64,000 nucleotides of DNA from Clostridia bacterium (lineage in GTDB: Bacteria > Bacillota > Clostridia > Christensenellales > Borkfalkiaceae). The position numbers and the translations under genes are program-made. Positions 30,361 through 46,112 of the stretch are shown here, one piece after another. The notes under the pieces were generated by a model. That model was given only the letters and a program-made list of their open reading frames with translations, had not been told where the DNA came from and searched no databases. The stretch lies in the NCBI GenBank assembly GCA_017626135.1, contig JAGAJI010000029.1, positions 2,328 to 66,327 of the forward strand, in the 5' to 3' direction. The stretch's first letter is position 1. Each line of letters begins with the position of its first letter.

Positions 30361-30455
30361 TAGGCTCGTCTTTCCGCGCTCCGAGGGAACGGCTCCTTGG
30401 CGGTCGGGACTTCCCGTCAGAGAAGTTCCACGGGAAACATCGTTTTTCGTCGGCG

Positions 30456-31205
30456 TCAATCTTCCACGTCGAAGGTGGGCTTTTTGGGCGGTTTCAGGAT
30501 AAGCGCCGCCAGCACCGGGACCAGCAGACAGATCACGATCAAAATCGCGATTTGCATCGGCGAGGCACCGTCCGTGGGAAGGGGCTCTTCCGAGCTGTCG
30601 CTCGAGGGTGGCGACAGCGACGAAAGGTAGTCTGCGTATTCCGTGTTTGGATCGTAGGAAAATCCACTCGGCTTGGGGATATAACCAAACTCCTCGCCGC
30701 GAAGTACGTAGCAGTAGGTCTCCGACCCCACGCGATAGTCTCCGTAATACACACAGGAGAGGGTAATTTCCGTCAGGAAGGAGGAATTCCCCGTCTCGGC
30801 GTCCTCGATCGTGTACTTCACGTCGAATACGTAATACAGATACGGACGCACGGGTACGTAATTCACGAAGGTGAGTTCCTCCGTCTTCGCGTACCCCACG
30901 AGCCGTTGCGCGGCGCTCTCGTTGCGCTGGTATTCCACCTTGCAAAAGGTCGTGCCGTACTCCATCAGCCGCACGTAATAGCTTTTGGGCAACAGGAACA
31001 CCCCTCTGCGCTCGTCGGGTGCGGCGTAGAAAAAGACGTCGTCTGCCAGAATACAGGCGTAATCGCCGACGGAAGGGAGAGACGGCGCCGTCTCTGCCTT
31101 GGTAAGGACGGGGGGAGGGAGGATAGTTGCGCTCAGGCACAGGACGAGCAGAAGACGCAATATGTATTTGTACAGGGTTCGAGCCCGAGAAAGTAAGTAC
31201 CGCAT
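30456..31205 (-). CDS. Signal-peptide protein with SH3b-like module and C-terminal TM anchor
   Basis: MRYLLSRARTLYKYILRLLLVLCLSA...; ...FCKVEYQ...GYAKTEEL...; EEFGYIPKPSG; C-terminal TM IAILIVICLLVPVLAALIL followed by KPPKK. The long upstream extension in the track ORF (to 31994) overlaps terL in antisense. Confidence 0.6.
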   Translation of the reverse strand: MRYLLSRARTLYKYILRLLLVLCLSATILPPPVLTKAETAPSLPSVGDYACILADDVFFYAAPDERRGVFLLPKSYYVRLMEYGTTFCKVEYQRNESAAQRLVGYAKTEELTFVNYVPVRPYLYYVFDVKYTIEDAETGNSSFLTEITLSCVYYGDYRVGSETYCYVLRGEEFGYIPKPSGFSYDPNTEYADYLSSLSPPSSDSSEEPLPTDGASPMQIAILIVICLLVPVLAALILKPPKKPTFDVED

Positions 31206-31250
31206 ACGTGCTATCATTATAATGCCAAAGGAGGGGAGGTTTTTGACGTT

Positions 31251-32687
31251 TTGACGGAAAATTTGAAAGAAATTGTAGAAAGACTGCGCCGCGTGGAAGC
31301 GGAGCAGAAAAAGCGTAGGGAAAGTCCGCTTGCCACCTACAACGCAGGGGAGAAGAAACACGAGAAACAGCTCGCCTTTCATCGCTGTCCCAAGCGCAAC
31401 CGTTGGGTGTTCGGCGGCAACCGTTCGGGCAAGACGGAGTGCGGCGCGGTGGAATGCGTGTACATGGCGCGGGGGATCCACCCCTATCGGCAAAACCGCA
31501 AAAACGTTTGCGGGTGGGTCGTCTCCCTCTCCCAACAGGTGCAGCGCGACGTGGCGCAAAAGAAGATCTTGCATTACCTGCGCCCCGACTGGATTGAGGA
31601 CGTCGTCATGCTCAGCGGCAGAAAGGACGCCCCCGAACACGGCGTCATCGACTTCATTCGCGTGAAGAACGTGCTGGGCGGTTCCTCCGTCATCGGGTTC
31701 AAGAGCTGTGATCAGGGCAGGGAGAAATTTCAGGGCGCGTCCCTCGATTTCGTTTGGTTCGACGAGGAACCGCCCGAGGATATCTATGCGGAATGCCGTA
31801 TGCGCGTGCTCGATCGGAAGGGGGATCTGTTCGGCACGATGACGCCCCTCAAGGGCTTGACGTTCGTGTACAACGAGATCTTTCTCAATCGTAGACGGGA
31901 CCCCGAGGTTTGGTACGAGTTCATGGAATGGAGCGACAATCCCTACCTCGACAGGGGGGAAGTGGAGGCGCTTGCGAGCGGCATGGACGAGCACGTCTTA
32001 CAGGCGCGGCGGTACGGGCGATTCGCGACGGCGGCGGCAGGGCTCGTCTATCCCGAATTCGACGAGTGTATACACGTCATTGAGCCCTTCCCCGTACCCA
32101 AGGAGTGGCAGGACAATATCTCCATCGATCCCGGGCTCAACAATCCCCTGTCGGCGCATTGGTACGCGGTGGATTTCGACGACAACGTGTACGTCGTTTA
32201 CGAGCATTACGAGGCGGGACGGGATATCGACTACCACGCCAACGCCATCAAGGAGATTTGCCAAAAGCTCGAATGGCATACCGACGGTCGAGGTCGGATC
32301 TGCGCGCTCATCGACAGCGCGGCGAAGCAGCGGACGTTAGGATCGGTCAAGAGCGTGGTGGAACTCTTTTACGAACGGGATATCCTCGTCAATCCGGACG
32401 TGGAGAAGGATCTGTTTTCGGGGATTGCGAGGGTCAAGAGTTACTTAAAGCAGGACAACGGGCAACCCAACCTCTATATCTTCAACAACTGCGTCAACCT
32501 CATCAGCGAGTTGAAGGGATACTACTGGGGGAGCGGAGACGTGCCGAGGAAGGTGAACGACCACAGCCTCGACGAGATGCGCTACTATCTGATGACGAGG
32601 CCGAAAAACGCGCCGAACGTACCTAAGACGGCGATCCAAAAGGACAAGGAAAGGCTGGCAAGAAAACTGAGGAGAAAGCGGGGATAA
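31251..32687 (+). CDS. terL: Terminase large subunit
   Basis: TTG start 11 nt after GAGGGGAGG. Walker A GGNRSGKTECG, Walker B LDFVWFDEEP. C-terminal nuclease-like region (IDPG...; ...DHSLDEMRY). Confidence 0.85.
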   Translation: MTENLKEIVERLRRVEAEQKKRRESPLATYNAGEKKHEKQLAFHRCPKRNRWVFGGNRSGKTECGAVECVYMARGIHPYRQNRKNVCGWVVSLSQQVQRDVAQKKILHYLRPDWIEDVVMLSGRKDAPEHGVIDFIRVKNVLGGSSVIGFKSCDQGREKFQGASLDFVWFDEEPPEDIYAECRMRVLDRKGDLFGTMTPLKGLTFVYNEIFLNRRRDPEVWYEFMEWSDNPYLDRGEVEALASGMDEHVLQARRYGRFATAAAGLVYPEFDECIHVIEPFPVPKEWQDNISIDPGLNNPLSAHWYAVDFDDNVYVVYEHYEAGRDIDYHANAIKEICQKLEWHTDGRGRICALIDSAAKQRTLGSVKSVVELFYERDILVNPDVEKDLFSGIARVKSYLKQDNGQPNLYIFNNCVNLISELKGYYWGSGDVPRKVNDHSLDEMRYYLMTRPKNAPNVPKTAIQKDKERLARKLRRKRG

Positions 32688-32691
32688 TGCG

Positions 32692-32712
32692 AAAAGGAAG
32701 GGGGCAGGTATG
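32692..32712 (+). repeat. Dispersed motif copy E: AAAAGGAAGGGGGCAGGTATG
   Basis: Lies 5 nt after the terL stop. Its ATG opens ATG AGA TGA (M-R-stop), which overlaps the ATG (32715) of the next gene. Confidence 0.9.
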
Positions 32713-32714
32713 AG

Positions 32715-33050
32715 ATGAGTGAGAATGTGAAGAAGAAAAAGACGACGAGCGGGGATAGTGGGCGGGCGAAAAAACAGGTGGGGAAGAACGAACGGTTGGA
32801 GGACGCGCTCTTGAAGGTGGCGCTCGGCTATCAGGTGGCGGAAGTCACCGAGGAGTTCGCGGAAGTGGACGGACAGTTGAAACTCACCAAGCGGAAGAAG
32901 ACGAAGAAGGACGTCCCGCCCGACTTGAAGGCGGTACAGCTCCTGCTCGCCACCAAGGGCGTGGGGGAGATGTCGGCGTGGACGGACGAGGAGTTAGAGG
33001 CGGAACGGCAACGGCTCTTGAAGGAAATGGAGGGGGCAGGTACGAAATGA
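32715..33050 (+). CDS. Small basic protein, terminase small subunit-like
   Basis: 111 aa. The pattern ALLKVALGY...E......K.TKRKKTKKDVPPDLKAVQLLL resembles Firmicutes phage TerS proteins (K-rich, then PPD..A). It is located after terL rather than before it. Confidence 0.45.
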   Translation: MSENVKKKKTTSGDSGRAKKQVGKNERLEDALLKVALGYQVAEVTEEFAEVDGQLKLTKRKKTKKDVPPDLKAVQLLLATKGVGEMSAWTDEELEAERQRLLKEMEGAGTK

Positions 33051-33075
33051 AAGCAAAAAACAAGGAGAAAACGGC

Positions 33076-34977
33076 ATGAAAGAAGACGAGGTAAAACTGA
33101 ACGAGAAAACCCTGTTGCAACGGCAGGAGAGGGAAAACGCGCGCATCGCCGCGGAAGTGACGGCGGATTTTGAAAGGCGGCGCGAGGAGAGGCGCTCGAT
33201 CGAGAGCGGCTGGATCCTCAACATCAATTTTTTGAGTGGCAATCAGTATTGCGACGTGTCGCCGATCGGGGACGTCGTTGAGGAAGATCCGCAATTTTAC
33301 TGGCAGTCGCGACGGGTGTTCAATCACATCGCGCCGACGGTGGAATCCCGTATCGCCAAGCTCGAACACATGAGACCCGAGCTCACGGTGCGCGCGTTTT
33401 CAGATGAGGACGGCGACGTGAAGGCGGCGCAACTTGCGACGGGAATCTTGCGCTACGTGCAGGACAGAATCGGCTTGCAGGAGCTCTCTTCCCGCGCAAC
33501 GACCTGGTCGGAAACGTGCGGTTCGTCCTTTTTCAAGGTGGACTGGAACGCGCAGGGCGGCAGGCAGGTAGGCGTTGACGAGGACGATCGACCTATCTAC
33601 GAGGGAGAGGTGCGCATCAGCGTCGTGCCCCCGTTCGAGATTTTTCCCGACCGTCTGGACGTGGAAGAGTTTGCGGAGGTGCAAAGCGTCATTCACGCGC
33701 GGGCGGTGCCCGTTTCCTACGTCGAAGAGAAGTTCGGCGTGACGCTGACGGGGCGGACGATCTCGGGAGTGATGCAGTACAGCGAGCCTTCCACCGCCAA
33801 GCTGCCCTATCAGAAGACGGGGATGAATTTTACCGATATCAAGGACGCGGAAATACTCATCGAGCGCTACACCCGACCGAGCGTGGACGCGCCGCAAGGG
33901 AAACTTGAGATCGTGGCAGGGGGAAAGCTCCTCTATTCCGACGTGTTGCCCTTCGTCAACGGAGAACGCAACGAGCGGGGATTCCCCTTCGTTAAGCAGG
34001 ACTGCCTGCGTCTGCCGGGCGCCTTCTTCGGCGTGAGCATCATCGACCGACTCATTCCCGTACAACGGGCGTACAACGCGGTGAAAAACCGTAAGTACGA
34101 GTTTTTGAACAGGCTGTCCATGGGGGTGCTGACGGTGGAGGACGGCTCCATCGATACGGACGAGCTTTCCGAAGAGGGCTTGTTGCCCGGGAAGGTGCTC
34201 GTCTATCGACAGGGGGGCAAACCGCCCGAAATGCTCGATTGCGGCAGTATGCCGAGAGAGTTTCAGGCGGAAGAGGAGCTTTTGGAAGAGGAGTTCGCCA
34301 AGATTTCGGGCGTGAGCGATCTGGCGAAGGACTCCACGCCCGTGCGCGTGACGAGCGCGACGGGATTGCAACTTCTACTCTCCCAGGACGAATCGAGGCT
34401 GTCCGCGACGGTGAAGAGCATAGAGCGGGCGTTGAAGGAAGTCGGCAGACAGATCTTGCGGCTGTACCGCCAGTTTGCGGGCACGGCGAGACTCATGACC
34501 CTCACGGGGGAAAACAAAAAATCGCAGGTGTATTATTTCAATGCGTCCGGTCTCGACGTCAACGACTTGCAGTTTGAGTCCAGAGAGACGGTGACGCCTG
34601 CGGAAAAGAAGAACACGCTGCTGAGCTTGTACGAGGCGGGATTGCTCACCGACGAACGGGGGAATCTGACGCAGGAGAACAAAAATCGGATCTTGGAGGC
34701 GTTCGGGTTCGGGAGCTATGAAAACGCAAGGGATATTTCCGCCCTCCATATTGCGAAGGCAGGGGAGGAAAATCTCGACATGAAGAGCGGCGAGGTAGAA
34801 CCCGACGTGTACGACGATCACGCGCTGCATATCACCGAGCATACGCGCTTTTTGCTGTCGGCGGATTTCAAGCGTTGCCGCGACAGGGAGACACTCAAAC
34901 GAAGATACGTGGCGCATCTGGAAGCGCACAAAGCGTTATTACGGAAAGAAACCGCAGGGGAAGCTGCGGAAAAATAA
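33076..34977 (+). CDS. Phage portal protein
   Basis: 633 aa. Its position between terminase and scaffold supports the call, as does its size and its acidic, helix-rich composition. The assignment is partly positional. Confidence 0.7.
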   Translation: MKEDEVKLNEKTLLQRQERENARIAAEVTADFERRREERRSIESGWILNINFLSGNQYCDVSPIGDVVEEDPQFYWQSRRVFNHIAPTVESRIAKLEHMRPELTVRAFSDEDGDVKAAQLATGILRYVQDRIGLQELSSRATTWSETCGSSFFKVDWNAQGGRQVGVDEDDRPIYEGEVRISVVPPFEIFPDRLDVEEFAEVQSVIHARAVPVSYVEEKFGVTLTGRTISGVMQYSEPSTAKLPYQKTGMNFTDIKDAEILIERYTRPSVDAPQGKLEIVAGGKLLYSDVLPFVNGERNERGFPFVKQDCLRLPGAFFGVSIIDRLIPVQRAYNAVKNRKYEFLNRLSMGVLTVEDGSIDTDELSEEGLLPGKVLVYRQGGKPPEMLDCGSMPREFQAEEELLEEEFAKISGVSDLAKDSTPVRVTSATGLQLLLSQDESRLSATVKSIERALKEVGRQILRLYRQFAGTARLMTLTGENKKSQVYYFNASGLDVNDLQFESRETVTPAEKKNTLLSLYEAGLLTDERGNLTQENKNRILEAFGFGSYENARDISALHIAKAGEENLDMKSGEVEPDVYDDHALHITEHTRFLLSADFKRCRDRETLKRRYVAHLEAHKALLRKETAGEAAEK

Positions 34978-34989
34978 GGAGGAAAGGAT

Positions 34990-35712
34990 ATGAAAGAAGA
35001 GGAGAACGTTTACGAAGAAACCACGCGGTCGGAGGACGCAACAGCGGTTGAAGGAGAGAAAGCCTCGACGGTACCGGGTAAGTTTAAGGACGTAGACGCC
35101 CTGGTGAGGGCGTACAGCTCGCTGCAAGCGGAGTTCACGAGACGAAGCCAAAGATTGAAGGAGCTGGAAAAGAGAGTGGAAAATTTTGAAGGGGAAGGGC
35201 ACGACGCCCGTTCGGGGGCGGAAAAGCTCCGTAAGAACGCAAAGGCGCATCGGGAGGAGAACGAGCAGTTTGACAAATTCATGGCGGAAACCGTGGGCGT
35301 CAATTCGCAGAGCTCCGAGGAGGCCTCGACCTCTCAAAACTCCGTCGTATCGAAAAATCAACCCTCGGAAGAAGTCGCTAAAGAAACGCAAAATTCGCAA
35401 AACGGGGATACCATGTCTGCGATGAACGTTTCTGCAGCTGCGGAATCTGCTCAAAAAGGCGAAAGGGAAGCAACGGGAAAAATCGCATCGGAAGACGGGA
35501 CGAATACGGGAAACCTTTACGAGCAGGTGTGCCGTGACGAAGGGGTGCGTCTGAAAATCATCGGCGAATATCTGTCGTCGATCGGAAGATCGGGCGCGCC
35601 GCTTATGACGGGCGGAGTGGGTCTGTTGGCGACGCCACCTCAAAAGCCGAAGAGTATTTCGGACGCCGGGAACATGGCTTTGTCGTATTTCAAAAAGCCG
35701 AAAGCCAACTAA
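34990..35712 (+). CDS. Phage scaffolding protein
   Basis: 240 aa, acidic and coiled-coil. The motif GKFKDVDALVRAYSSLQAEFTRRSQRLKELE is common in scaffold proteins. It sits directly upstream of the capsid gene. Confidence 0.65.
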   Translation: MKEEENVYEETTRSEDATAVEGEKASTVPGKFKDVDALVRAYSSLQAEFTRRSQRLKELEKRVENFEGEGHDARSGAEKLRKNAKAHREENEQFDKFMAETVGVNSQSSEEASTSQNSVVSKNQPSEEVAKETQNSQNGDTMSAMNVSAAAESAQKGEREATGKIASEDGTNTGNLYEQVCRDEGVRLKIIGEYLSSIGRSGAPLMTGGVGLLATPPQKPKSISDAGNMALSYFKKPKAN

Positions 35713-35750
35713 GGCATTGCCTAAATAAAATAATAGGAGAATAATCATTT

Positions 35751-36917
35751 ATGGTAACACTTCAAACAGCGGATAACGCATTAAAATCTTTTTATCTCGA
35801 CGCGATGACGGACGCGCTCAACTTGAAAATCAATCCCTTGCTTGCACAGATCCAGCGTACCACCGCAAACGTCGTGGGTAAGGACGTGAGAAAGACGGTG
35901 CGCGTGGGCGTCAACGGCGGCATCGGCGCCGGCTCGGAAACGGGAGATCTTCCCACCTCCGGCGGGGGCGAATACGTGCAGTTCGTCGCAACCTTGAAAA
36001 ACTTGTACGGCACGATTGAGATTTCCGACAAGGCGCTCCGCGCGTCCGCAAACAGCGAGGGCGCGTTCGTCAACTTGCTCAACGAAGAGATGAGTTCGCT
36101 CGTCAAGAGCGCCTCCTTCAACTTCGGCAGAATGCTTTTCGGAGACGGCAAGGGGAGACTTGGTAAGGTGCTCGAGGTGAACGAGAATACAATCACATTG
36201 AGCTCTACGAAAGGGATTTTGGAAGGCATGATCGTCGGCTTCTGCACCGCAGGCGGCGCAGCGATCGCCGTAGCGCAAAAACGCAAGGTGCTTTCCGTCG
36301 ACAAGGCGAACTCCACGATTGTTTTAGACGGCGCGGCGCTCAACACGACTCTCTTGCCCGTGAACAGTATGCTTTATTTGCAGGATTCCAACCGCAACGA
36401 GATCACCGGTTTGGGCGCGATCTTTTCCACGAACGCGCTGTACGGCGTGGAGAGAACGCACTCCGTGATGCAGCCCTATATGAAGACGGAGGTGGGCGAG
36501 ATCACCGAAAACGTCATTCAGACTGCCATCGACGCCATCGAGGAAAACTCGGGCAGTCAGGTCAACTTCATCGTTTGCTCCTGGGGGGTGAGACGTGCGT
36601 TGGCGGAATACTTCAAGCAGTTTAAGACTATGCTGCCCACCATGGAGCTCGAAGGCGGTTTCCACGCGATGAGCTTTAACGGCATTCCCATCGTGGCGGA
36701 CAGATTCTGCCCGGAAGGAACCATGTACCTGTTGAACACCGACGACTTTGCCGTTCATCAGCTCTGCGACTGGCAATGGCTCGAAAGCGAAGACGGTAAA
36801 ATCCTCAAACAGGTTGCCGGGAAACCCGTATACACCGCGACGCTCGTGAAGTATGCGGAACTTATGTGCGATCGTCCGAGCGGTCAGGGTATGTTGAGCG
36901 GTATCACCGAAGCGTAA
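35751..36917 (+). CDS. Major capsid protein (HK97-fold type)
   Basis: 388 aa, following the scaffold gene. N-terminal NALKSFYLDAMTDALNLK...; C-terminal ...YTATLVKYAELMCDRP. Followed by a strong terminator, as is common for highly expressed capsid genes. Confidence 0.7.
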   Translation: MVTLQTADNALKSFYLDAMTDALNLKINPLLAQIQRTTANVVGKDVRKTVRVGVNGGIGAGSETGDLPTSGGGEYVQFVATLKNLYGTIEISDKALRASANSEGAFVNLLNEEMSSLVKSASFNFGRMLFGDGKGRLGKVLEVNENTITLSSTKGILEGMIVGFCTAGGAAIAVAQKRKVLSVDKANSTIVLDGAALNTTLLPVNSMLYLQDSNRNEITGLGAIFSTNALYGVERTHSVMQPYMKTEVGEITENVIQTAIDAIEENSGSQVNFIVCSWGVRRALAEYFKQFKTMLPTMELEGGFHAMSFNGIPIVADRFCPEGTMYLLNTDDFAVHQLCDWQWLESEDGKILKQVAGKPVYTATLVKYAELMCDRPSGQGMLSGITEA

Positions 36918-36926
36918 GAGCCAAAC

Positions 36927-36967
36927 AGAGTACCCAGGTATGCGTTGAGTTACTTGGGTACTCTTTT
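36927..36967 (+). terminator. Rho-independent terminator/attenuator after the capsid gene
   Basis: A 14-bp stem AGAGTACCCAGGTA / TACTTGGGTACTCT followed by TTTT. The loop and 5' arm carry the dispersed motif core CAGGTATGCGTTGA (36935-36948). Confidence 0.8.
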
Positions 36968-36992
36968 ATAACCGCAGAAAAGGAGGGAGAAT

Positions 36993-37535
36993 ATGAAAGT
37001 GAAAGAGATTGTGCTCTCGGCGGCGGAGTCGCTGGGGCTTGGGGAGGGCGTGTCCGCGTTTTTCGACGGCGGGGATCCCTGCCTGCAACGGGAGGCGGAG
37101 CTCCTGCTCGCTTGTTTCAACCGCGTGGAAAGGAGCCTTGCGCTCGAATATTTGCCGCTTTACGCCGAGGACGAGTTGCTTACCGTCGACGATGAGGTGG
37201 AATATTCGGCGTTGACCTACGCGCCCGTCCGCATTTTAGGGGTGGAAAACGGAGCGGGCGAATCCGTTCCGTATAAGCTCTATCCGCGATACTTAAAGGC
37301 GGTGTCGGGGAAGATCAAGGTGACCTACACCTATACGCCGAACGCCAAAACCATCGACGACGACAGCGATTTTACCCTGCCGTCCGTGCTTGAACACGGG
37401 ACGTTGGCGGAATACTGTCTGTCGGAAGGTCGGTTGGCGGAGTCCGCCGTCTGGGAGCAAAAATATAAGCAAGAGATCGAAGGGGCGTTCCGTGGCAAGA
37501 AGTACAAGCGCCTGCGTTCGAGAAGGTGGGTGTGA
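36993..37535 (+). CDS. Hypothetical phage structural protein (head completion/connector candidate)
   Basis: 180 aa. GGAGGGAG SD. Its stop overlaps the next start (TGATG), implying translational coupling. I recognise no family signature. Confidence 0.5.
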   Translation: MKVKEIVLSAAESLGLGEGVSAFFDGGDPCLQREAELLLACFNRVERSLALEYLPLYAEDELLTVDDEVEYSALTYAPVRILGVENGAGESVPYKLYPRYLKAVSGKIKVTYTYTPNAKTIDDDSDFTLPSVLEHGTLAEYCLSEGRLAESAVWEQKYKQEIEGAFRGKKYKRLRSRRWV

Positions 37536-38872
37536 TGGCGATCGGCGAAACGAAACGGAGAAAGCACGCGACGTTTTCCTTCTCCTTGCAGGAGAGGGGG
37601 AAGAATGTACTTTTGGCGAAGGAGAGCGTCAACTGCGACTGTCGTCTGGGCAGCTTGAAATCGGGCATGGGCGCGACGCCTTTGCGCAAAAGCGACGGTT
37701 CAACGCATACCTGCCCCGAGGGTAACGTCACGCATATCGTCATTCGCAAGGATTTGGACGACGAGACGAAGACCTATACCGAACGCATCGGCGCGTTGAC
37801 GGACGAGGGCGCGTTTTTCTTGCAGAGCGCTCTGGACGGAGAATTTACGCAGATCACGGTCAACGTTTTCGCGCCCGGGATCGTGCAATTCGCAGGGACG
37901 GATTCCCGGTATAAGCTCGCCGTCATCGGGGAGACGATGTGCGCCTTCCTGCGCGAGGACGACTCCTTTGATTTGGCGATGATGGACGGAATGAGCCGTA
38001 TCGGTTGTTTCTTCGCACACCGTATGTTCATCGGCGTCAAACCCTCCACGCTGACGTGTTCGGCGCCCGAAAACGTGCAGAGTTTCGCCCCGTCCATCAA
38101 CGACGGCGGACTCATTCGCTTTCCCAACGCGGGCGGAATGATGGTGGCGATGCAGGTGTATGAGGAGCGGCTGTACCTGTTTTTCGAGTACGGGATTTTG
38201 CGCGTGGACGCCAAAGGTGCGGTCAAGGACTTCAAGGCGGAGCAGTTGCCATACACGGGCGGCAAGATCTACGGGAAGAGCGTCTGCGCGGGCGTGCGCG
38301 GCATCTATTTCCTCGCCTCGGACGGTGTGTATCATTTCGACGGCAAGTGGACCAAACGGGTGTTGGACGGGTTTGTCCTTTGCCCGAAAGGGGAGACGTT
38401 GCTTGAAAGCAGCGCCGCGTTTGCCGGGCGGGTATTCTTGCGGTACGAGACGGACGAGGGCTACAAAACCTTGGTGTTTTACGAAGGGGAAGAGAGTGGG
38501 TATTATACGGACTTTTTCCCCATATTTAACAAGGACGACGGGGGCAAGTGTTTGTTCGCGGAGCCCGATCGCAAAATTTACGAATTTTCCGAACGGGGCG
38601 AAAAGGGCGCGGACGGGAGCTTTTCGAGCGAGGAAACGGACTTGGGCACGGGCGTGCGCAAGACGCTCACCAACCTGTATTTTACCGGTCGCGGCAGCTT
38701 TACGTTGACGGTGAAAACGGGGGGAAGAAAACTCGTGCGAGAGCTGACCTTTCAAGAGGGCAGGGCGGAGGTGCGGTTGTCGGAAAGCGGCGAGCGATTC
38801 TCCTTCGACTTCGCCCTTCCGTACGGTTCGGAGGTGAGCTCCATGTCGGCGGCGTACCTGCCCTTTGCTTAA
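37535..38872 (+). CDS. Hypothetical phage structural protein, repeat/beta-rich
   Basis: 445 aa. The ATG at 37535 overlaps the upstream TGA. Recurrent ...Y.F..DG.Y..DG... strands suggest a beta-propeller-like fold. Function unknown. Confidence 0.5.
   Translation: MAIGETKRRKHATFSFSLQERGKNVLLAKESVNCDCRLGSLKSGMGATPLRKSDGSTHTCPEGNVTHIVIRKDLDDETKTYTERIGALTDEGAFFLQSALDGEFTQITVNVFAPGIVQFAGTDSRYKLAVIGETMCAFLREDDSFDLAMMDGMSRIGCFFAHRMFIGVKPSTLTCSAPENVQSFAPSINDGGLIRFPNAGGMMVAMQVYEERLYLFFEYGILRVDAKGAVKDFKAEQLPYTGGKIYGKSVCAGVRGIYFLASDGVYHFDGKWTKRVLDGFVLCPKGETLLESSAAFAGRVFLRYETDEGYKTLVFYEGEESGYYTDFFPIFNKDDGGKCLFAEPDRKIYEFSERGEKGADGSFSSEETDLGTGVRKTLTNLYFTGRGSFTLTVKTGGRKLVRELTFQEGRAEVRLSESGERFSFDFALPYGSEVSSMSAAYLPFA
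37698..37717 (-). repeat. Dispersed motif copy H (only minus-strand copy): reverse complement reads GGGGCAGGTATGCGTTGAAC
   Basis: A 20/20 match to copy A (10365-10384), lying inside a + strand CDS. Confidence 0.9.
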
Positions 38873-38884
38873 GGAGGAGAAATC

Positions 38885-39370
38885 ATGACCATTGACATCA
38901 TCAGTTATACGGACGAGCAGTACGCGCTTTTGACGCTGGAACAGCTCAAGGAAGTCCGTTCGGCGCAGACGAAGAAGGATAAGCTGAAAATCGAGCTGGA
39001 CGCGGCGTTGCAAACCGCCAAAAATTCCCTCGTAAAAAAGGGGATCTACAATTCGGGACTCTATGCTCTCATCGAGAAGAAACTGCAAGCGGAGTATACC
39101 CAACAGGTGGAGTTGATCCGCGACGGCTTGCAGTTTTACCTTAAATATTCGATGCAACCGGACGGTTCGGCGTGGGACGCACCTTATCCCATCAATTTCG
39201 CGTTGTCCTACGAGGCTCGGTTCAACGTCGTGCGCAACTACTATGACACCACTTACGAGAACGCTTCGATACGTTTCGAAACTTTCCAACAAGACGTCTT
39301 CGCGCCTCGGTACTTAGGGGAACTGTACGAATCCCTCTACGCACATTACCGAGGCATGGCGATGGCGTAA
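38885..39370 (+). CDS. Hypothetical protein (last gene of phage-like module)
   Basis: 161 aa. GGAGGAGA SD. I recognise no family signature. Confidence 0.5.
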   Translation: MTIDIISYTDEQYALLTLEQLKEVRSAQTKKDKLKIELDAALQTAKNSLVKKGIYNSGLYALIEKKLQAEYTQQVELIRDGLQFYLKYSMQPDGSAWDAPYPINFALSYEARFNVVRNYYDTTYENASIRFETFQQDVFAPRYLGELYESLYAHYRGMAMA

Positions 39371-39381
39371 AGAATATCAAA

Positions 39382-39408
39382 AACGCAGGCGAAACGCTTG
39401 CGTTTTTC
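39382..39408 (+). terminator. Rho-independent terminator closing the phage-like operon
   Basis: AACGCAGGCG-aaa-CGCTTGCGTT followed by TTTT. A TGgTATAAT promoter for dut follows at 39418-39426. Confidence 0.8.
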
Positions 39409-39457: not shown

Positions 39458-39898
39458 ATGCCCACGGTTGCAGTAAAAAAATTAGAGGAAAGAGCGGTTT
39501 TGCCCACCTACGGTTCGGAGTATTCCGCAGGCGCGGATCTGTATGCGTTGACGGAGGAGGAACTCGTCTTCGCTCCGGGAGAAACCAAACTCGTGCGTAC
39601 GGGGCTTGCGATGGAAATTCCCGAAGGATACGCAGGACTCATCTATGCGCGGAGCGGGCTTGCTTCCAAGCGGGGGTTGGCGCCTGCCAACAAAGTGGGC
39701 GTCGTGGACGCCGATTATCGCGGAGAGATCATGGTGGCGCTCCACAACCATTCGAATACCGAGCAGAAAATTGCGCCGCAGGAGCGTATCGCTCAGCTCG
39801 TGATCACTCCCTTTTTGAAAGCGGAGTTCGAGGAGCGCGAGTCCCTTTCGGACACCGTGCGCGGCAGCGGCGGGTTTGGCAGCACGGGCACGAAGTAA
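39458..39898 (+). CDS. dut: dUTP diphosphatase
   Basis: 146 aa with trimeric dUTPase motifs: AGADLYA, GLIYARSGL, VGVVDADYRGEI, RIAQLVI, RGSGGFGSTG. Confidence 0.92.
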   Translation: MPTVAVKKLEERAVLPTYGSEYSAGADLYALTEEELVFAPGETKLVRTGLAMEIPEGYAGLIYARSGLASKRGLAPANKVGVVDADYRGEIMVALHNHSNTEQKIAPQERIAQLVITPFLKAEFEERESLSDTVRGSGGFGSTGTK

Positions 39899-39917
39899 GG
39901 AAAAAGAGGTAGAAAGT

Positions 39918-40607
39918 ATGTCCATGAGAATGAGGAAAAAGCGCAATTTCGACGCACGCATGGAGGCGTGCGGGGATTTGCTCCTCGCCAAGGGCGCGGG
40001 CGGTATTTTGAACATGAAAGAGGCGGCGGAGAACTATCGCAACCTCGTCGATTTTTCCAAGGCGTTCGGGAACGACAATCCCGTGGCGCTTGAAATCGGG
40101 TGCGGAAAGGGGGGCTTCGTCATCGCGCTCGCCAAGGAAACGCCGAACATCAACTATCTGGCGTTGGAGAAGATGAGCAACGTGATCTTAACGCCCATGG
40201 AAGAGGTGAAAAAGCAGGGAATCGACAATATCCGTTTTCTCAATATCCGCGCGGAGTGCCTGCCTTGCTATATTCCCGAGGGGAGTCTCGACGCCATCTA
40301 TCTCAACTTTTCCACCCCTTTGCCCAAGCTCGGCTACGCGACCCAAAGGCTCACGCACAGAAACTTTTTGGAGAAGTACAAAAAACTGCTCAAAGTGGGC
40401 GGACGCATTTTGCAAAAGACGGACGATCGGGATTTCTTCGAATTCTCGTTGGGGGAGTACGAGGCGTGCGGGTTCGCGCTTGAAAACGTGACGTACGATC
40501 TGCACGAAGGGGGCAACCCCGACTGGAACGTCGTCACCGAGTACGAGCAGAAATGGGTGGAGCGGGGCTTGCCCATTCACCGCGTGGAAGCCGTGTATAA
40601 AGGATAA
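39918..40607 (+). CDS. trmB: tRNA (guanine-N7)-methyltransferase
   Basis: LEIGCGKGGF SAM motif, NIRFL, YLNFSTPLPK, FLEKYKKLLKVGGRILQKTD. I prefer the start at ATG 39918. Confidence 0.85.
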   Translation: MSMRMRKKRNFDARMEACGDLLLAKGAGGILNMKEAAENYRNLVDFSKAFGNDNPVALEIGCGKGGFVIALAKETPNINYLALEKMSNVILTPMEEVKKQGIDNIRFLNIRAECLPCYIPEGSLDAIYLNFSTPLPKLGYATQRLTHRNFLEKYKKLLKVGGRILQKTDDRDFFEFSLGEYEACGFALENVTYDLHEGGNPDWNVVTEYEQKWVERGLPIHRVEAVYKG

Positions 40608-40851
40608 CGACGTGAAAAAGACGACTGACGCCGCCCTTATTTTGGAATAAGAGCGGCGTCTTTGCGCTCCGCCGCATATGCCCGATACCGCATACGGCAA
40701 TATCTGCCAAAAAAATTTTTCGAAAATCGCAAATTTTTTCTCCGTTCCCCCTTGAAAATTTCACAATTATATGATATAATAAATAAAAATATTTTTATTT
40801 TTTATATTGACGTACGCGCGTAAACGATTTCGCGCCGAAAAGGAGGCTTTT

Positions 40852-42849
40852 ATGTTGAATGTAGAGAACGGTTGTGTAGACTGCGCTTGTGAGAGCGCGT
40901 TGGAAAACGCATGGAAAATATTGACGGCGAGCAAGAAGAGAAACTTCGTCGTCGTGCAGATCGCACCCGCGGTGCGCGTATCGATCGGCGAAAAGTTCGG
41001 TCTTACGCGCGGCGAGGATAGCGTGGGCAAAGTGGTGGCGGTGCTCGAATTGCTCGGCGCGGACGCCGTGGTGGATACGGCGATCGCCTCGGACGCGATC
41101 ACGCTGATGAAATTGAAGAAAGTGCGTCAAAACAAAGAGACGGGCGCGGGTACGGTGTACTCGTCCGAGTGCCCCGGTTGGCGACGCCACGCGAAAAAGA
41201 ACTATCCCGAGATCGAGCTTTTGCCTACGGCGACCAGCGTCTGCGCGAAGCTTTTGAAAAAGTATTACAGCGAAGCGGAGCCCGGCAAAAAAATCCGTGT
41301 GATTGCGTTGGAAATGGGCAAGGGCAAGAAGGACGAGCCCGGCGTCGACCTCGCGTTGACCCTCGACGAACTCGGCATTCTCGTCAACAGTCTGGAAACG
41401 AGCGTTCGTTTGCTCAAAAAGAAACCTTTGGCTACGCCGCTCGGCATCGGTTCGGGCGCGAGCTATATCGCGGCGGCAAGCGGCGGCGACGCAGAGGCGT
41501 TGGCACGTTGTTTGACGACGGAAAAAAATCAGCTCCATTACAGAAAATTCGAATATAGCGGTTTGTACGGGAAGGGCTCCCGTCGCGAAGCGGTGATGAC
41601 GCTTGGCGGCGAAGAATGGAAATTCGCCGTGGTGGACTCCGTGGCGGCGGCGGACGCTCTGCTTGCCGATATCGAGGCGGGCGCACGGTACGACTACGTG
41701 GAGATCACGGCTTGCGCAGGCGGTCAGATCGGCAAGGGGTGCGACTTATCCACCGAACAGGGCGAAATGACGAGAAGGTTGCGGCACCTTGGCTTGAAAT
41801 ATCTCGACCGCGCTCGTGCGGCGCGCTCCGCAGAAACGAACGCTCCTGCGGCGGCACTCCTCAAATCGTGGAACGCCCTCTGCCGTAGTGGCGAGGCGGC
41901 GGCTTACGACGTCATCGATGAAATCGTGGAAGACTTCGACGAAGTCGAGGAAATCGTAGAGGAACCTGTCGAGGAAGTCGTCGAAGAGACTCCCGTGGAA
42001 GAGACGGTAGAAGAACCTGTCGAAGAAACTCCCGTCGAAGTGGTAGAAGAAGTTGTCGAAGAGACTCCCGAGGAAGTGGTCGAAGAAGTCGTCGAAGAGA
42101 CTCCCGTGGAAGAAGTTGTAGAAGTCGTCGAAGAAACTCCTGTCGAGGAAGTCGTAGAAGAAGTCGTCGAAGAGACTCCCGTGGAAGTGGTCGAAGAAGT
42201 CGTCGAAGAGACTCCCGAGGAAGTGGTCGAAGAAGTTGTCGAAGAAACTCCTGTCGAGGAAGTCGTAGAAGAAGTCGTCGAAGAGACTCCCGTGGAAGTG
42301 GTCGAAGAAGTTGTCGAAGAAACTCCTGTCGAGGAAGTTGTAGAAGAAGTAGCCGCAACGGAAACGGAAGTCGTCGAAGAGGTTGCAGAAGAACCCGTCG
42401 TCGAGGAAGTTGTCGAAGAGACTCCCATCGAAGAACCCGTCGAAGAGGTTGTCGAAGAACCTGTCGTCGAGGAAGTTGCAGAAGAACCCATCGTCGAAGA
42501 AGTCGTTGAAGCAGTCGTTGAAGAAGCTCCCGTTGAAGAACCAGTCGAAGAGGTTGTAGAAGAACCCGTCGTCGAGGAAGTTGCCGAAGAGGCTCCCGTG
42601 GAAGAAGAACCCGAAGAGGAGGTTGTGCTCACCGCGGATAAGGAAGCGGAACTGATGCAACAGGTCAGCGCGGAAGAACTCGCCGAGGAAATGAAACACG
42701 TGGAGGAGCTTTTAGACGTAGCCGAAGAAGATTTGACGTTGGCGCAGAAGCTGGCGAGGGCGCATTACTATCGCCGTCTGTCCACGAAGGAACGCCGTAA
42801 ACTCAAGAGATTGAGAAAGAAGATGAAGAACGGCAAAAACAGAAAATAA
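40852..42849 (+). CDS. [FeFe]-hydrogenase large-subunit-like (H-domain) protein with degenerate cluster ligands and long acidic repeat tail
   Basis: AAGGAGG precedes ATG 40852. The H-domain-like blocks are VVQIAPAVRVSIGEKFG, SSECPGW (canonical TSCCPxW), ALEMGKGKKDE (canonical MPCxxKxxE) and EITACAGGQIGKGC. A roughly 235-aa (E/V/P/T) repeat follows, then a basic tail RRLSTKERRKLKRLRKKMKNGKNRK. Confidence 0.7.
   Translation: MLNVENGCVDCACESALENAWKILTASKKRNFVVVQIAPAVRVSIGEKFGLTRGEDSVGKVVAVLELLGADAVVDTAIASDAITLMKLKKVRQNKETGAGTVYSSECPGWRRHAKKNYPEIELLPTATSVCAKLLKKYYSEAEPGKKIRVIALEMGKGKKDEPGVDLALTLDELGILVNSLETSVRLLKKKPLATPLGIGSGASYIAAASGGDAEALARCLTTEKNQLHYRKFEYSGLYGKGSRREAVMTLGGEEWKFAVVDSVAAADALLADIEAGARYDYVEITACAGGQIGKGCDLSTEQGEMTRRLRHLGLKYLDRARAARSAETNAPAAALLKSWNALCRSGEAAAYDVIDEIVEDFDEVEEIVEEPVEEVVEETPVEETVEEPVEETPVEVVEEVVEETPEEVVEEVVEETPVEEVVEVVEETPVEEVVEEVVEETPVEVVEEVVEETPEEVVEEVVEETPVEEVVEEVVEETPVEVVEEVVEETPVEEVVEEVAATETEVVEEVAEEPVVEEVVEETPIEEPVEEVVEEPVVEEVAEEPIVEEVVEAVVEEAPVEEPVEEVVEEPVVEEVAEEAPVEEEPEEEVVLTADKEAELMQQVSAEELAEEMKHVEELLDVAEEDLTLAQKLARAHYYRRLSTKERRKLKRLRKKMKNGKNRK
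41910..42625 (+). repeat. In-frame tandem coding repeats (36-39-nt units, higher-order duplications) encoding VVEETPVEEVVEE-type acidic repeats
   Basis: Near-identical units such as GAAGTGGTCGAAGAAGTCGTCGAAGAGACTCCCGTG recur. Blocks around 42040-42170 and 42175-42300 are close duplicates. Confidence 0.9.
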
Positions 42850-42900
42850 CGAGGGGGCGCGGCGGTAAAAACGCCGCGCGCTTTCTACAAAGGAGAAAAC

Positions 42901-43914
42901 ATGAAAAAAGGATTTGTAAAAGGGGTGGCGCTCGCTTGCGCTTTTGTGTGCGTGGGGTTGAGTGGTTGTCGCCCGAGCGTGCCCGACGGAGAAATTACGG
43001 TGTATATGCCTGACGGGGCGCCTGCGTTGGCGCTTGCCAAACTCATGCACGAGGACACCGAGGACGACGGAGTCACCTATCGCGTAGTGGATTCGAGCTT
43101 GATTTCGTCCAAAGTGACGAATCGGGACGCGGCAAAGAATGCCGACGTATGCGTCCTGCCCGTCACGGCGGCGGCAAAACTGCTTGGAACGGGGGAGACA
43201 TACAAGATGCTCGGCACGGTCACGCACGGCAACTTGTATCTGCTCGCCAAGGAAGAGGGCGCAATCACGGCGGAAAATTTGAGCACCCTCGTCGGCAAAA
43301 AGGTGGGGGTGTTGCAGATGACGAGCGTCCCCGGCCTCACCTTCAAAGCGACGTTAAGTAGCCACGGCATCGCATGGCAGGAAGTGACGAACGAGGGGGG
43401 CATGGTCGAGGATAAGGTCAATTTATTCGCTATTTCGGGGGCGGACGCCGTCGGCGTCATCGAGGCGGATTACTTCATGATTGCCGAGCCTGCGGCAAGC
43501 GCGCAGAGCAAGAAGGGGTACTCCATCGTCGGCAACGTGCAGACCCTCTACGGCGGAGAAAATGGGTTTCCACAGGCGGCGCTCGTCGCTAAAAACAGCT
43601 TGCTCGTCGAGCACGAGGACTGGGTAAAATCCTTCGTGGAGAGGGTGGACGGCGCTTCGGCGTGGCTGACGGAGACGGACGGACAAACGCTCGTAGCGAC
43701 GGTGAACGCGCATATGGACGATAGGACTTCGGAGACGTCCTTGAAGGCGCCCTTGCTCACGCAGACGGCGCTTGCAGGTTGCGGGATCCGCTTTACCTAC
43801 GCCGCAGCCGATTTTGAAGAGGTCAACGCATTTCTGACGAAATTGCTCCTCGTCAACGATAAGGCGACGGCGATGCCTTCTGAAAACTTCTACTGGACGT
43901 ATTTTGAACCATGA
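42901..43914 (+). CDS. ABC transporter substrate-binding lipoprotein (NMT1/THI5, NitT/TauT-type)
   Basis: Signal peptide with lipobox VGLSGC. Periplasmic-binding-like sequence. The ATGA overlap with the permease gene implies coupling. Confidence 0.7.
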   Translation: MKKGFVKGVALACAFVCVGLSGCRPSVPDGEITVYMPDGAPALALAKLMHEDTEDDGVTYRVVDSSLISSKVTNRDAAKNADVCVLPVTAAAKLLGTGETYKMLGTVTHGNLYLLAKEEGAITAENLSTLVGKKVGVLQMTSVPGLTFKATLSSHGIAWQEVTNEGGMVEDKVNLFAISGADAVGVIEADYFMIAEPAASAQSKKGYSIVGNVQTLYGGENGFPQAALVAKNSLLVEHEDWVKSFVERVDGASAWLTETDGQTLVATVNAHMDDRTSETSLKAPLLTQTALAGCGIRFTYAAADFEEVNAFLTKLLLVNDKATAMPSENFYWTYFEP

Positions 43915-44666
43915 GAAAAATACTTGCAAAAACTGCATGGCAGACGTTGGCGGCAATCGGATTTTTGATCGTCGTTTGGGCGTGTCTGTATCTGGCGGCG
44001 GGGAACGAGCTTCTCGTGCCCTCGCTATTTGCGTGCTTTGCGGAAATGGGCGCGCTCCTTGGGAGCGGCGCTTTCTGGATAGCGCTTCTGGCGAGTTTCC
44101 TACGCGCGTTGGAGGCTTTCGCAATCTCTTTCGTTTTCGCTTTGATTTTTGCAATCATCGCGTACCTGGTGCCCTCGTTTGAAAAATTATTCGCGCCTTT
44201 GGCGTCCGCGCTCCGCTCTCTGCCCGTGCTCGCGGTGCTACTTATCTTACTCTCGGTGCTCAGCGCCGGGCAAGCCCCCGTCGCCGTGGCGTTTTTGTCT
44301 CTATTTCCCATGCTGTACACGGGAATTTTGGCGGCACTTTCGGGCGTGGACAAGCAGGTTATTGCCATTAGTCGCGTACATGGTACCCCTCTATGGCGAA
44401 AAGTAACCCGTATTTATCTGCCTCTTTCTGCTCCGTATATTCTGCGTGAATCGGGGGGAGCGCTCGCCTTTTCCTTGAAGCTCGTCGTCTCGGCGGAAGT
44501 TTTGGCGAACACGGCGAAAAGCTTGGGGGGCATGATGCAGGAGGCGAAAATCTACGCGGAAATTCCCGAGCTTTTCGCGCTCGTCTTCGCGACCTTTTTC
44601 GTAGGACTTCTTTTGGAGCTCGCCGCAACGGCGCTCGCTTCGTACGTGCAAAAGCGTATGCAATAA
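43911..44666 (+). CDS. ABC transporter permease (NitT/TauT family)
   Basis: 251 aa, about 6 TM helices. EAA-like loop ...ISRVHGTPLWRKVTRIYLPLSAPYIL. Confidence 0.8.
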   Translation: MRKILAKTAWQTLAAIGFLIVVWACLYLAAGNELLVPSLFACFAEMGALLGSGAFWIALLASFLRALEAFAISFVFALIFAIIAYLVPSFEKLFAPLASALRSLPVLAVLLILLSVLSAGQAPVAVAFLSLFPMLYTGILAALSGVDKQVIAISRVHGTPLWRKVTRIYLPLSAPYILRESGGALAFSLKLVVSAEVLANTAKSLGGMMQEAKIYAEIPELFALVFATFFVGLLLELAATALASYVQKRMQ

Positions 44667-45397: not shown

Positions 45398-45458
45398 ATA
45401 AAATCGCTTGTTATTATCGATAAAAAGTCGTATAATGATAAAAAAGGAGAGGAAGCGT

Positions 45459-46112
45459 ATGAAAGAAACGGGCGTAAAAAAACACGTTGATGCGAAAGAC
45501 ATTTCCAAAGCGACGGTGGCGCGTATGCCGCTGTATCTGCATTTTTTGCAGGAAGAGGCGTCGAAGGGGGCGCAGTATATCTCTTCCACGGTCATCGCGC
45601 AGAACATTTCCGTATCCTCGGTGCTGGTGCGCAAGGATTTGGCGCTCGTGTCCTCGGAGGCGGGCAGACCCCGACTCGGCTTCGCCATCAGCCGTCTGAT
45701 CGTCGACATTGAAAAATTTTTGGGCTACGATATCCTTTCCGACGCCGTGATCGTGGGCGCCGGGGGACTGGGCAGAGCATTTCTGGGTTACGAGGGATTC
45801 AAGAATAACGGACTCAACATCGTCGCGGCGTTCGACGTGTCCGAAAAGCTCATCGGCACCAACGTGCTGGGCAAGGAAATTTTGCCCATTTCCGAGCTCG
45901 ACGCCTTCGTCAAAGAACACAAGATCCGCATCGGGATCATCACCGTACCCAAAGCCGCTGCGCAGGAGGTTTTGAACGAAATGGTGGGGGCAGGTATCAA
46001 AGCAATCTGGAATTTTGCGCCGGCGCCCCTGCGTGCGCCCAAGGACGTCGTACTCAAAACGGAGGATCTGGCGGCGTCGCTTGCCATGCTTGCAGGAAAA
46101 CTCTACACCTGA
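45459..46112 (+). CDS. rex: Redox-sensing transcriptional repressor Rex
   Basis: AAGGAGAGG precedes ATG 45459. N-terminal ISKATVARMPLYLHFL. Rossmann motif VIVGAGGLGRAF. The C-terminus is typical of Rex. Confidence 0.9.
   Translation: MKETGVKKHVDAKDISKATVARMPLYLHFLQEEASKGAQYISSTVIAQNISVSSVLVRKDLALVSSEAGRPRLGFAISRLIVDIEKFLGYDILSDAVIVGAGGLGRAFLGYEGFKNNGLNIVAAFDVSEKLIGTNVLGKEILPISELDAFVKEHKIRIGIITVPKAAAQEVLNEMVGAGIKAIWNFAPAPLRAPKDVVLKTEDLAASLAMLAGKLYT

Follow-up and report, generated by a model that had tools for sequence, protein, structure and literature searches.

The gene described here lies on the plus strand at 40852..42849 of a 64,000-nucleotide (nt) stretch of contig JAGAJI010000029.1 from a Clostridia bacterium (assembly GCA_017626135.1). 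This whole stretch is referred to as the window, and all coordinates are given in its numbering. The gene encodes a protein of 665 amino acids (aa), termed P0001, that is related to the [FeFe] hydrogenases. The list of open reading frames (ORFs) has a frame that opens with TTG and spans 40807..42849; it includes the ATG at 40852. Our preferred reading, which we hold to be moderately probable, is that P0001 is a non-catalytic descendant of the group-A-type [FeFe] hydrogenases (a pseudo-hydrogenase) that was reused as a tethered binding protein. It consists of three parts, namely, an H-domain under selection, a polyanionic disordered linker free of lysine and arginine, and a C-terminal helical module that ends in a basic helix. 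The features of the gene are listed below, with active-site residues numbered after CpI, the enzyme of Clostridium pasteurianum.

40852..42849, plus strand: coding sequence, 665 aa and stop codon (ORF list, translation)
40873..40890, plus strand: C8-x2-C11-x-C13, a probable vestige of the last ferredoxin-type cluster motif of ancestral N-terminal domains (judged by its position)
40891..41901, plus strand: H-domain including a small-subunit-like C-terminal wrap, residues 14-350 (Pfam, models with a predicted local distance difference test score, pLDDT, above 90, superposition on CpI, and the ratio of nonsynonymous to synonymous substitution rates, dN/dS)
41155..41181, plus strand: degenerate L1 motif VYSSECPGW, in which position 299 is Glu106 and C300 is kept as C107 (CpI alignment, family columns)
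41299..41334, plus strand: degenerate L2 motif VIALEMGKGKKD, in which the ligand Cys is lost and the Lys is kept (alignments)
41698..41742, plus strand: degenerate L3 motif VEITACAGGQIGKGC, in which C499 is kept as C287, C503 is replaced by Gln291, and a new Cys follows 6 residues on (alignments)
41902..42618, plus strand: polyanionic disordered linker, residues 351-589 (full-length model, composition)
41968..42346, plus strand: tandem DNA array with a period of 111 (also 36/75), 3.4 copies, 88% matches (Tandem Repeats Finder)
42397..42590, plus strand: second tandem array with a period of 105, 1.8 copies, 85% matches (Tandem Repeats Finder)
42619..42846, plus strand: C-terminal helical module, residues 590-665 (full-length model; aligned in near relatives)
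42766..42810, plus strand: core family motif YYRRLSTKERRKLKR, Y639 to R653 (family alignment)

A first-pass annotation of this DNA, made from the sequence by eye, had assigned the N-terminal part of the protein to the hydrogenase H-domain, and this homology was clearly borne out. Pfam Fe_hyd_lg_C matched residues 32-293 above its cut-off (E 1.1e-33, 117.4 bits, profile positions 2-242 of 245) and was the sole family above cut-off in a Pfam scan of the protein, which found no sensor or output domain. Matches below the cut-offs, to Utp12 and WH2 with the full protein and to PPV_E1_N and SWC7 with its last 78 aa, were discarded as weak or repeat-driven. Furthermore, 43 distinct sequences of the Protein Data Bank (PDB) matched at E <= 0.001, the top one being 8a6t_A, the HydA1 subunit of the bifurcating HydABC complex (E 3.9e-32). 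The structure prediction that had been proposed as a check returned a confident H-domain fold: given 44 family sequences, AlphaFold modeled residues 1-365 with a pLDDT of 89.0 and a predicted template modeling score of 0.88. In the full-length model, residues 13-350 superposed on residues 208-569 of CpI (Z 36.5, root mean square deviation 2.9, 328 residues), so that the H-domain reaches the very end of the normal enzyme, small-subunit-like wrap included. The same model superposed on CbA5H with a Z of 39.0 and a root mean square deviation of 2.6 over 329 residues. The acidic region begins at the point where hydrogenases end. The NCBIfam hydrogenase cut-offs were far from being reached (134.1 versus 405.95 bits for FeFe_hydrog_A and 154 versus 765 bits for A6). 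Two H-domain loops were more confident in the full-length model than in the model of residues 1-365 (residues 51-60, from 75 to 93; residues 151-160, from 78 to 90), a gain that cannot be credited to the tail because the alignments behind the two models differ. Residues 53-56 form an RGED loop that is specific to the family. The CxxCxC motif at residues 8-13 sits just before the helix that aligns with the H-domain start in full-length relatives; it is not conserved among near relatives and is lost in P0016.

We take the four cysteine ligands of the H-cluster to be residues 300, 355, 499, and 503 of CpI. Only position 299 was fixed by alignment, using two CpI variants that carry D (6glz) or A (6gly) there, and the residue numbers 299, 279, and 282 are those named in PDB titles. 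Cys299, Glu279, and Glu282 take part in proton transfer. According to PMC3485046, the equivalent of CpI Cys299 shows high conservation across all [FeFe] hydrogenases and matters for their activity. In P0001, Glu106 occupies position 299, and Met86 and Lys90 stand at the positions of Glu279 and Glu282. Two of the four ligand cysteines are retained (C107 and C287). The first-pass annotation had described the signature motifs as altered and had named the presence of all four cysteines at shifted positions as a finding that would speak against it; L1, L2, and L3 are degenerate as described, and no such shift was observed. The L2 stretch is free of any Cys, position 503 is Gln, and the extra cysteine C297, which is part of GKGC and is kept in the near clade as the Cys of a GxGC motif, does not bring the ligand count back to four. 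Having lost the proton relay together with half of its four cluster ligands, the H-domain very probably cannot hold an H-cluster, and the protein probably holds no Fe-S cluster at all.

The known maturases HydE, HydF, and HydG were not found in the genome of this bacterium (94.27% complete). HydG was not found in any of 25 genomes of the genus (completeness 67-96%), and HydE and HydF were not found in the same genomes at E <= 1e-40, although absence from draft genomes is not proof. Likewise, none of 10 further genomes with distant family members yielded HydG; the completeness of these genomes is unknown, and they may overlap with the first set. Of the order's 16 other families, 8 had all three maturases, one of them with a weak HydG match only. 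None of these eight genomes yielded a family member; their best matches were 31-33% identical and of ordinary length, and one genome had no match. Since related genomes are not independent, the absence of maturases may reflect a single ancestral loss. Together with the lost relay cysteine, the loss of two of the four ligands, and the NCBIfam scores below cut-off, these data agree with the earlier view that the protein is non-catalytic.

Other hydrogenase genes of the genus raise a related question. On contig C21 of the same genome (L013:865-2286) we observed a group-B-type [FeFe] hydrogenase of 473 aa in which the CC, PC..K, and MAC..GC motifs are intact. An intact gene of this type without maturases means either that an unknown maturation route exists or that these enzymes lack the [2Fe] site. 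The maturases were likewise not found in 8 of the order's 16 other families, and the same puzzle was raised for archaea, where another maturation route was proposed, in PMC11216029. In addition, four group-A-like homologues of 587-588 aa adjoin a NuoF-like gene (L067-L070, that is, G004:C50, G018:C36, G023:C11, and G001:C25). In all four, L1 reads TSCSPGW, with Ser replacing the second Cys, whereas L3 is normal; L2 has the usual MPC..K form in three of the four, and this form was not found in the G018 copy. These observations draw attention to a genus that keeps apparently intact hydrogenase genes while the known maturases were not found.

To describe the relatives of P0001, we searched with residues 1-360 and obtained 72 proteins at E <= 1e-20, all of which carry PF02906 and no name beyond "hypothetical protein". 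When 1.84 billion representatives were searched exhaustively with phmmer, 1,071 matched at E <= 0.001 and 33 at E <= 1e-30. The related loci, gathered with the 44-sequence alignment, come from records of Candidatus Scatosoma sp. and of uncultured Clostridia, Clostridiales, or Eubacteriales metagenome-assembled genomes, several of which name animal hosts. Among 193 near-complete H-domain sequences, the query-like ones contain an acidic stretch (a D+E content of 30% or more in the best window of 60 aa) and, in most cases, a basic tail, whereas ordinary hydrogenases reach at most 28% and are tail-less. An H-domain-only tree was built from 69 of these rows by a quick search that did not infer the root, after near-identical, partial, and many canonical rows had been dropped. 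All 39 acidic-plus-tail rows fell on one side of one branch, with a value of 100 in the Shimodaira-Hasegawa-like approximate likelihood ratio test, and P0089 and P0090 formed the unresolved base of that side. P0089 (736 aa) combines Fer2_4, NADH-G_4Fe-4S_3, and Fer4 domains with four ligand cysteines, Phe at position 299, the acidic region, and the tail. P0001 itself has the features that define the family, namely, an H-domain without the relay cysteine, an acidic linker poor in K and R, and the motif Y..R.S...R.K. One high-ranking protein, P0075, was rejected as a family member, as its rank arose only from seven domains adding up; it has 4,122 aa and seven H-domain stretches, its visible repeats have intact motifs, and further long C-terminal regions follow. 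The literature that we searched, mostly outside subscription journals, contained no paper on a bacterial hydrogenase homologue with such features or on this gene in Scatosoma.

The loss of active-site residues is graded within the family. In none of 82 non-identical members does the column of CpI position 299 contain Cys; the residues are E (46), K (15), R (10), G (5), S (2), and N, F, A, and P (1 each). The number of ligand cysteines is four in 12 members, three in 10, two in 56, one in 3, and zero in 1 (P0086), and the patterns vary by subclade, with the reservation that the loop alignments may be off in places. These data bear on the idea that P0001 is a redox or sensory protein with an Fe-S cluster of non-standard ligation, held by C107, C287, C297, and Glu106 or another residue. 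In its favor, all members of the near clade keep C107 and the Cys of the GxGC motif and most of them also C287, the Lys at CpI position 358 is retained, and 12 of the 82 members keep all four cubane ligands. However, C287 is replaced by Ser, Gly, or Val in P0016, P0019, and P0021, the L2 stretch offers no Cys, P0086 has no ligand left, and no sensor or output domain was found with Pfam. Moreover, cysteine patterns that differ by subclade are what relaxed constraint at the site would give. We thus consider such a cluster unlikely.

The linker that follows the H-domain has an extreme composition. Residues 350-590 (241 residues) comprise 106 E, 78 V, 22 P, 14 T, and 10 A, corresponding to 44% E and 32% V, and no K or R. 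In the full-length model, residues 377-589 have a pLDDT below 50 and no secondary structure, so that the acidic arm is predicted to be disordered, as had been proposed earlier. When measured in the way applied to the whole family, the linker has 288 aa and a net charge of -119. Tail positions could be located in 76 of 93 family proteins, and the linkers of these are 59-485 aa long (median 194.5), with median fractions of 0.42 for E+D and 0.02 for K+R and net charges from -14 to -167. Composition is conserved across the family while sequence and length drift. The region had been called rich in perfect repeats; the repeats are there, and their perfection is only partial, as the longest exact copies measure 74 nt in DNA (at 42127 and 42238) and 35 aa in protein.

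Variation in repeat length between strains, which had been anticipated, was indeed observed. Thirteen strain variants that are 99-100% identical over the first 360 aa range from 550 to 676 aa in length; the first 365 aa are identical in 10 of them and the last 80 aa in 12, and the thirteenth, P0013, ends in the same basic tail. All length changes are therefore in frame. A DNA contig of run X9 (a study other than that of the RNA runs described below) jumps 150 nt within the array, from 41996 to 42147. Short-read assemblies can collapse repeats, so that exact repeat lengths need long reads. Acidic tracts are also present elsewhere. Two unrelated proteins encoded in the window (14466-15833 and 19388-21019, both minus strand) have E/V/P/T-rich tracts, one of them with an N-terminal membrane anchor and an internal tract and the other with an acidic C-terminal extension, and in relatives such tracts were seen in proteins of 670-1,163 aa. 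A match to GerD in the relative P0047 (39.0 bits, cut-off 29.5) lies inside the acidic repeat and was treated as compositional; DUF445 is among the precomputed labels of some relatives.

The first-pass annotation had spoken of a basic tail. The sequence is as stated, but it is not a simple tail: residues 590-665 are predicted with confidence (pLDDT 76-92) to form a helical module, which this stretch terminates and the core motif of which is conserved across the family. The module contains helices at 595-604, 607-614, 617-620, 630-640, and 645-664, the last of which is basic. Full-length members share the pattern Y..R.S...R.K; Ser644 is invariant in 56 of 56 aligned sequences, and Tyr639, Arg642, Arg648, and Lys650 are conserved to at least 90%. 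From its sequence, the Ser-x-x-Glu spacing looks like a helix cap. The strict tail pattern had a single match among the 11,203 ORFs of at least 60 aa in the genome, the pseudo-hydrogenase ORF itself, and a looser pattern gave chance-like internal matches. Database searches with the tail alone returned 3 fragments of the same gene and 17 matches, all 17 with PF02906 and all of them family members; these searches need shared exact 5-residue words, and distant look-alikes can escape them. A search of the ESM Atlas with residues 596-665 gave no usable match. A resemblance to ribosomal protein uS19 (E 0.23-1.1 with a single sequence) was rejected as compositional, since it disappeared with a 7-sequence profile, for which the best matches were unrelated (E >= 0.56). 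A complex prediction of the module on the H-domain scored 0.00 (mark 0.32); it was run without controls and speaks neither way.

The H-domain evolves under strong purifying selection. Its dN/dS was 0.063 against an 87%-identical relative (dS 1.2, near saturation) and 0.066 between two other members (dS 0.40). Values of about 0.06 rule out decay and suggest that the protein's function depends on the fold and can do without the chemistry. Two other explanations, a working hydrogenase with shifted ligands and a decaying pseudogene, could draw on the Fe_hyd_lg_C match above cut-off and on the drift of the Cys patterns. The former is contradicted by the loss of the bridging Cys503 and of the relay Cys299 and by the maturases not having been found, and the latter by a frame that is intact in 13 of 13 strain variants, by the low dN/dS, and by a tail conserved down to 35-40% identity. 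We therefore regard both as extremely improbable.

The signals and neighbors of the gene are the following.

39458..40607, plus strand: upstream genes for a dUTPase (39458-39898) and a TrmB-type methyltransferase (39918-40607) (Pfam; syntenic in relatives)
40752..40780, plus strand: promoter-like site, TTGAAA and TG-n-TATAAT spaced by 17 nt (11 of 12 matches in a scan; no more than agreement with the consensus)
40840..40846, plus strand: ribosome-binding site AAGGAGG, 5 nt upstream of the ATG (read in the sequence)
42851..42885, plus strand: strong hairpin directly 3' of the stop codon, without a clear U-tract (RNA fold)
42901..44666, plus strand: two genes of an SsuABC-like ABC importer, one for a lipoprotein-like substrate-binding protein (42901-43914) and one for a BPD_transp_1 permease (43911-44666) (Pfam, NCBIfam)

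A TTGAAA element was also present upstream of the orthologues at L003, L004, and L005, with an extended -10 element of the same type at L003 and L004. The hairpin after the stop codon has a predicted energy of -26.4 kcal/mol (z -5.47, 0 of 200 shuffles as good) and is not among the calls of a terminator scan. Metatranscriptome contigs of runs X15 and X16, which belong to one study, match 40825-41364, 41496-41831, and 42342-42796, mostly at >=99% identity, and give a weak hint that the gene is transcribed. RNA contigs of these runs are absent before 40825 and after 42796, and DNA runs cover both sides; the gaps prove nothing. We also considered an operator for Rex, as TTCACAA in the promoter (40760-40766) would be a half-site by the Rex consensus; the candidate was dropped because the full palindrome is absent and none was seen by eye upstream at L003-L005. 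A gene for a Rex-type redox repressor (Put_DNA-bind_N and CoA_binding) lies just past the transporter in the window (45408-46112) and at L023, L027, and L031, and is followed by AdhE at L023 and L027.

The strong promoter-like site and the ribosome-binding site bear on a further explanation, according to which the protein is abundant and the polyglutamate linker is its working part, a polyanion serving as a buffer for cations or basic proteins or as a mimic of nucleic acid, with the H-domain as its soluble carrier and the tail as its internal counter-ion. The net charge of about -119 in P0001 and of -14 to -167 in the family, the near-zero K+R content, and a composition that is held while sequence and length drift are consistent with this idea. 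It leaves unexplained why the H-domain should be under strong purifying selection, and a mere counter-ion has no need of a motif with an invariant Ser and a conserved Tyr; moreover, some members have linkers of only 59 aa. We judge this explanation improbable.

At all of the 10 other loci examined, genes for a 332-380-aa binding protein without Pfam family and for a BPD_transp_1 permease lie downstream of the family gene on its strand. Nine of these loci were scanned with Pfam, and in 6 of the nine an ABC_tran ATPase comes next; the tenth locus was judged by gene lengths only. In the window, the binding protein weakly resembles SsuA (E 1.4e-05). Conceivably, then, P0001 is an accessory or regulator of this importer, and its basic helix holds it at the membrane or at the transporter. 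The same transporter follows at L029 and L032 even though the upstream genes differ there, and in four cases the gaps are as short as 29-54 nt. However, the transporter is present in 23 of 25 genus genomes, the family gene in only 7, and in at least 12 the transporter comes directly after trmB without it. In 12 genomes, trmB ends <=260 nt from the binding-protein gene with no copy between, and in 4 more the gap of 680-1,207 nt has no match to the pseudo-hydrogenase gene. Furthermore, dut and trmB are equally constant neighbors, so that the link to the transporter may be inherited gene order, and a strong hairpin separates the two genes in the window. A role as accessory or regulator of the importer is accordingly rather improbable. 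As a separate observation, the region between trmB and the binding-protein gene (40607-42901 in the window, compared with L041-L061) offers a clean presence/absence difference within one genus. At two distant loci, L034 (10955-12460) and L035 (10869-12374), a 502-aa protein with Fer4 and Fe_hyd_lg_C lies past the ABC transporter downstream of the family gene, so that a normal-looking and a degenerate hydrogenase homologue flank one transporter.

Upstream of dut lies a domesticated phage-capsid module that resembles a gene transfer agent (29881-39408). Module, dut, trmB, and family gene are syntenic in G018 and G010, which would fit a role of P0001 as cargo or accessory of the module. Against this, G020 contains the gene and no module gene in the 5 kb upstream of dut, the scanned upstream genes of distant loci gave no phage-family match (the two upstream proteins at L029 have no Pfam family), the protein matched nothing in PHROGs or PADLOC, and dut-trmB occurs without the gene in most genus genomes. 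Such a role is very unlikely.

Taken together, the evidence leads us back to the non-catalytic descendant of a group-A-type enzyme that serves as a binding protein. The family, which was seen only in genomes that yielded no maturases, would have arisen once from a full-length enzyme and would then have lost the N-terminal Fe-S domains and the ligand cysteines stepwise. The hydrogenase shell may act as a protein-binding head only, the acidic linker as a flexible spacer or brush, and the conserved C-terminal peptide may dock on a specific partner or a polyanionic surface. By analogy with other tethered ligands, this mechanism, drawn from the architecture alone, is a tentative proposal to which we give somewhat less than even weight. 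A bolder and rather doubtful scenario is that maturases were lost in an ancestor of gut Clostridia and that a full-length hydrogenase was then reused as a cofactor-free, abundant tether with its shell as binding head, a polyglutamate spring, and an invariant basic docking helix, the present members preserving a stepwise path on which the relay cysteine was lost first, the Fe-S domains next, and the cubane ligands last.

Several observations weigh against the view of a cofactor-free binding protein. Most near relatives retain C107, C287, and C297 around the former cluster site, which leaves room for a cluster with unusual ligation, and the members that keep all four ligands indicate that the family may not share one cofactor state. 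The genomes in which trmB abuts the transporter show that the gene is dispensable. The acidic V/E/P-rich tracts on unrelated proteins suggest that the linker may be a lineage-wide habit rather than a device of this protein, and the hint of transcription comes from contigs of one study only.

If the bolder scenario is correct, the family would represent a conversion of a bacterial enzyme into a scaffold with living intermediates, and pseudoenzymes joined to a disordered polyanion would be a new class in bacteria. The graded series from four to zero ligand cysteines, with and without Fe-S domains, provides a way to study how the fold of a metalloenzyme outlives its cofactor. There is also a practical consequence. 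Because the gene passes the Pfam cut-off, domain-based pipelines will call it an [FeFe] hydrogenase and thus inflate estimates of H2 metabolism in animal-gut metagenomes.

The first-pass annotation had placed P0001 beside Nar1- and HydS-type relatives and had considered a sensory role. The tree and the domains of P0089 indicate instead a separate offshoot of the group-A-type enzymes, and nothing was found in support of a sensory role. Nar1, NARF, and IOP1, eukaryotic hydrogenase-like proteins, resemble P0001 in being H-domain homologues without H2 metabolism. Proteins of the Nar1 type function in cytosolic Fe-S assembly and retain the cysteines of two [4Fe-4S] clusters. P0001 differs from them in being bacterial, in having the linker and tail, and in having only two of the four cysteines expected at the H-cluster site. 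A CxxCxC stretch that may correspond to an N-terminal second-cluster motif is present at residues 8-13; near relatives do not conserve it. In the H-domain-only tree, which holds no Nar1 or NARF sequences, P0001 groups with bacterial group-A-type enzymes. NARF is the only non-H2 homologue of the [FeFe] enzymes named as excluded in HydDB. HydS of group C keeps a working H-cluster and carries a sensor domain. It shares with P0001 an altered proton pathway and a proposed non-metabolic role, as described in PMC10055695 and PMC10407848; unlike HydS, P0001 has lost ligands and has no fused sensor or output domain detectable with Pfam.

In architecture alone, P0001 is similar to FtsZ and SSB, in which a disordered linker, free to vary in length, connects the folded head to a short conserved peptide at the C terminus; there is no relation in sequence or fold, and the linker of P0001 is strongly polyanionic. 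The closest relatives in sequence are the group A [FeFe] hydrogenases of M3 architecture (CpI, HydA of HydABC in 8a6t, and CbA5H), with which P0001 shares the H-domain fold and its wrap (Z 35-39 over 326-329 residues). It differs from these enzymes in having two of the four ligands and no F-domains, in belonging to a family in which 0 of 82 members keep the relay cysteine and in a genus of which 25 genomes yielded no HydEFG, and in the added acidic linker and basic module, whereas the basal member P0089 keeps the N-terminal Fe-S domains of the group A enzymes.

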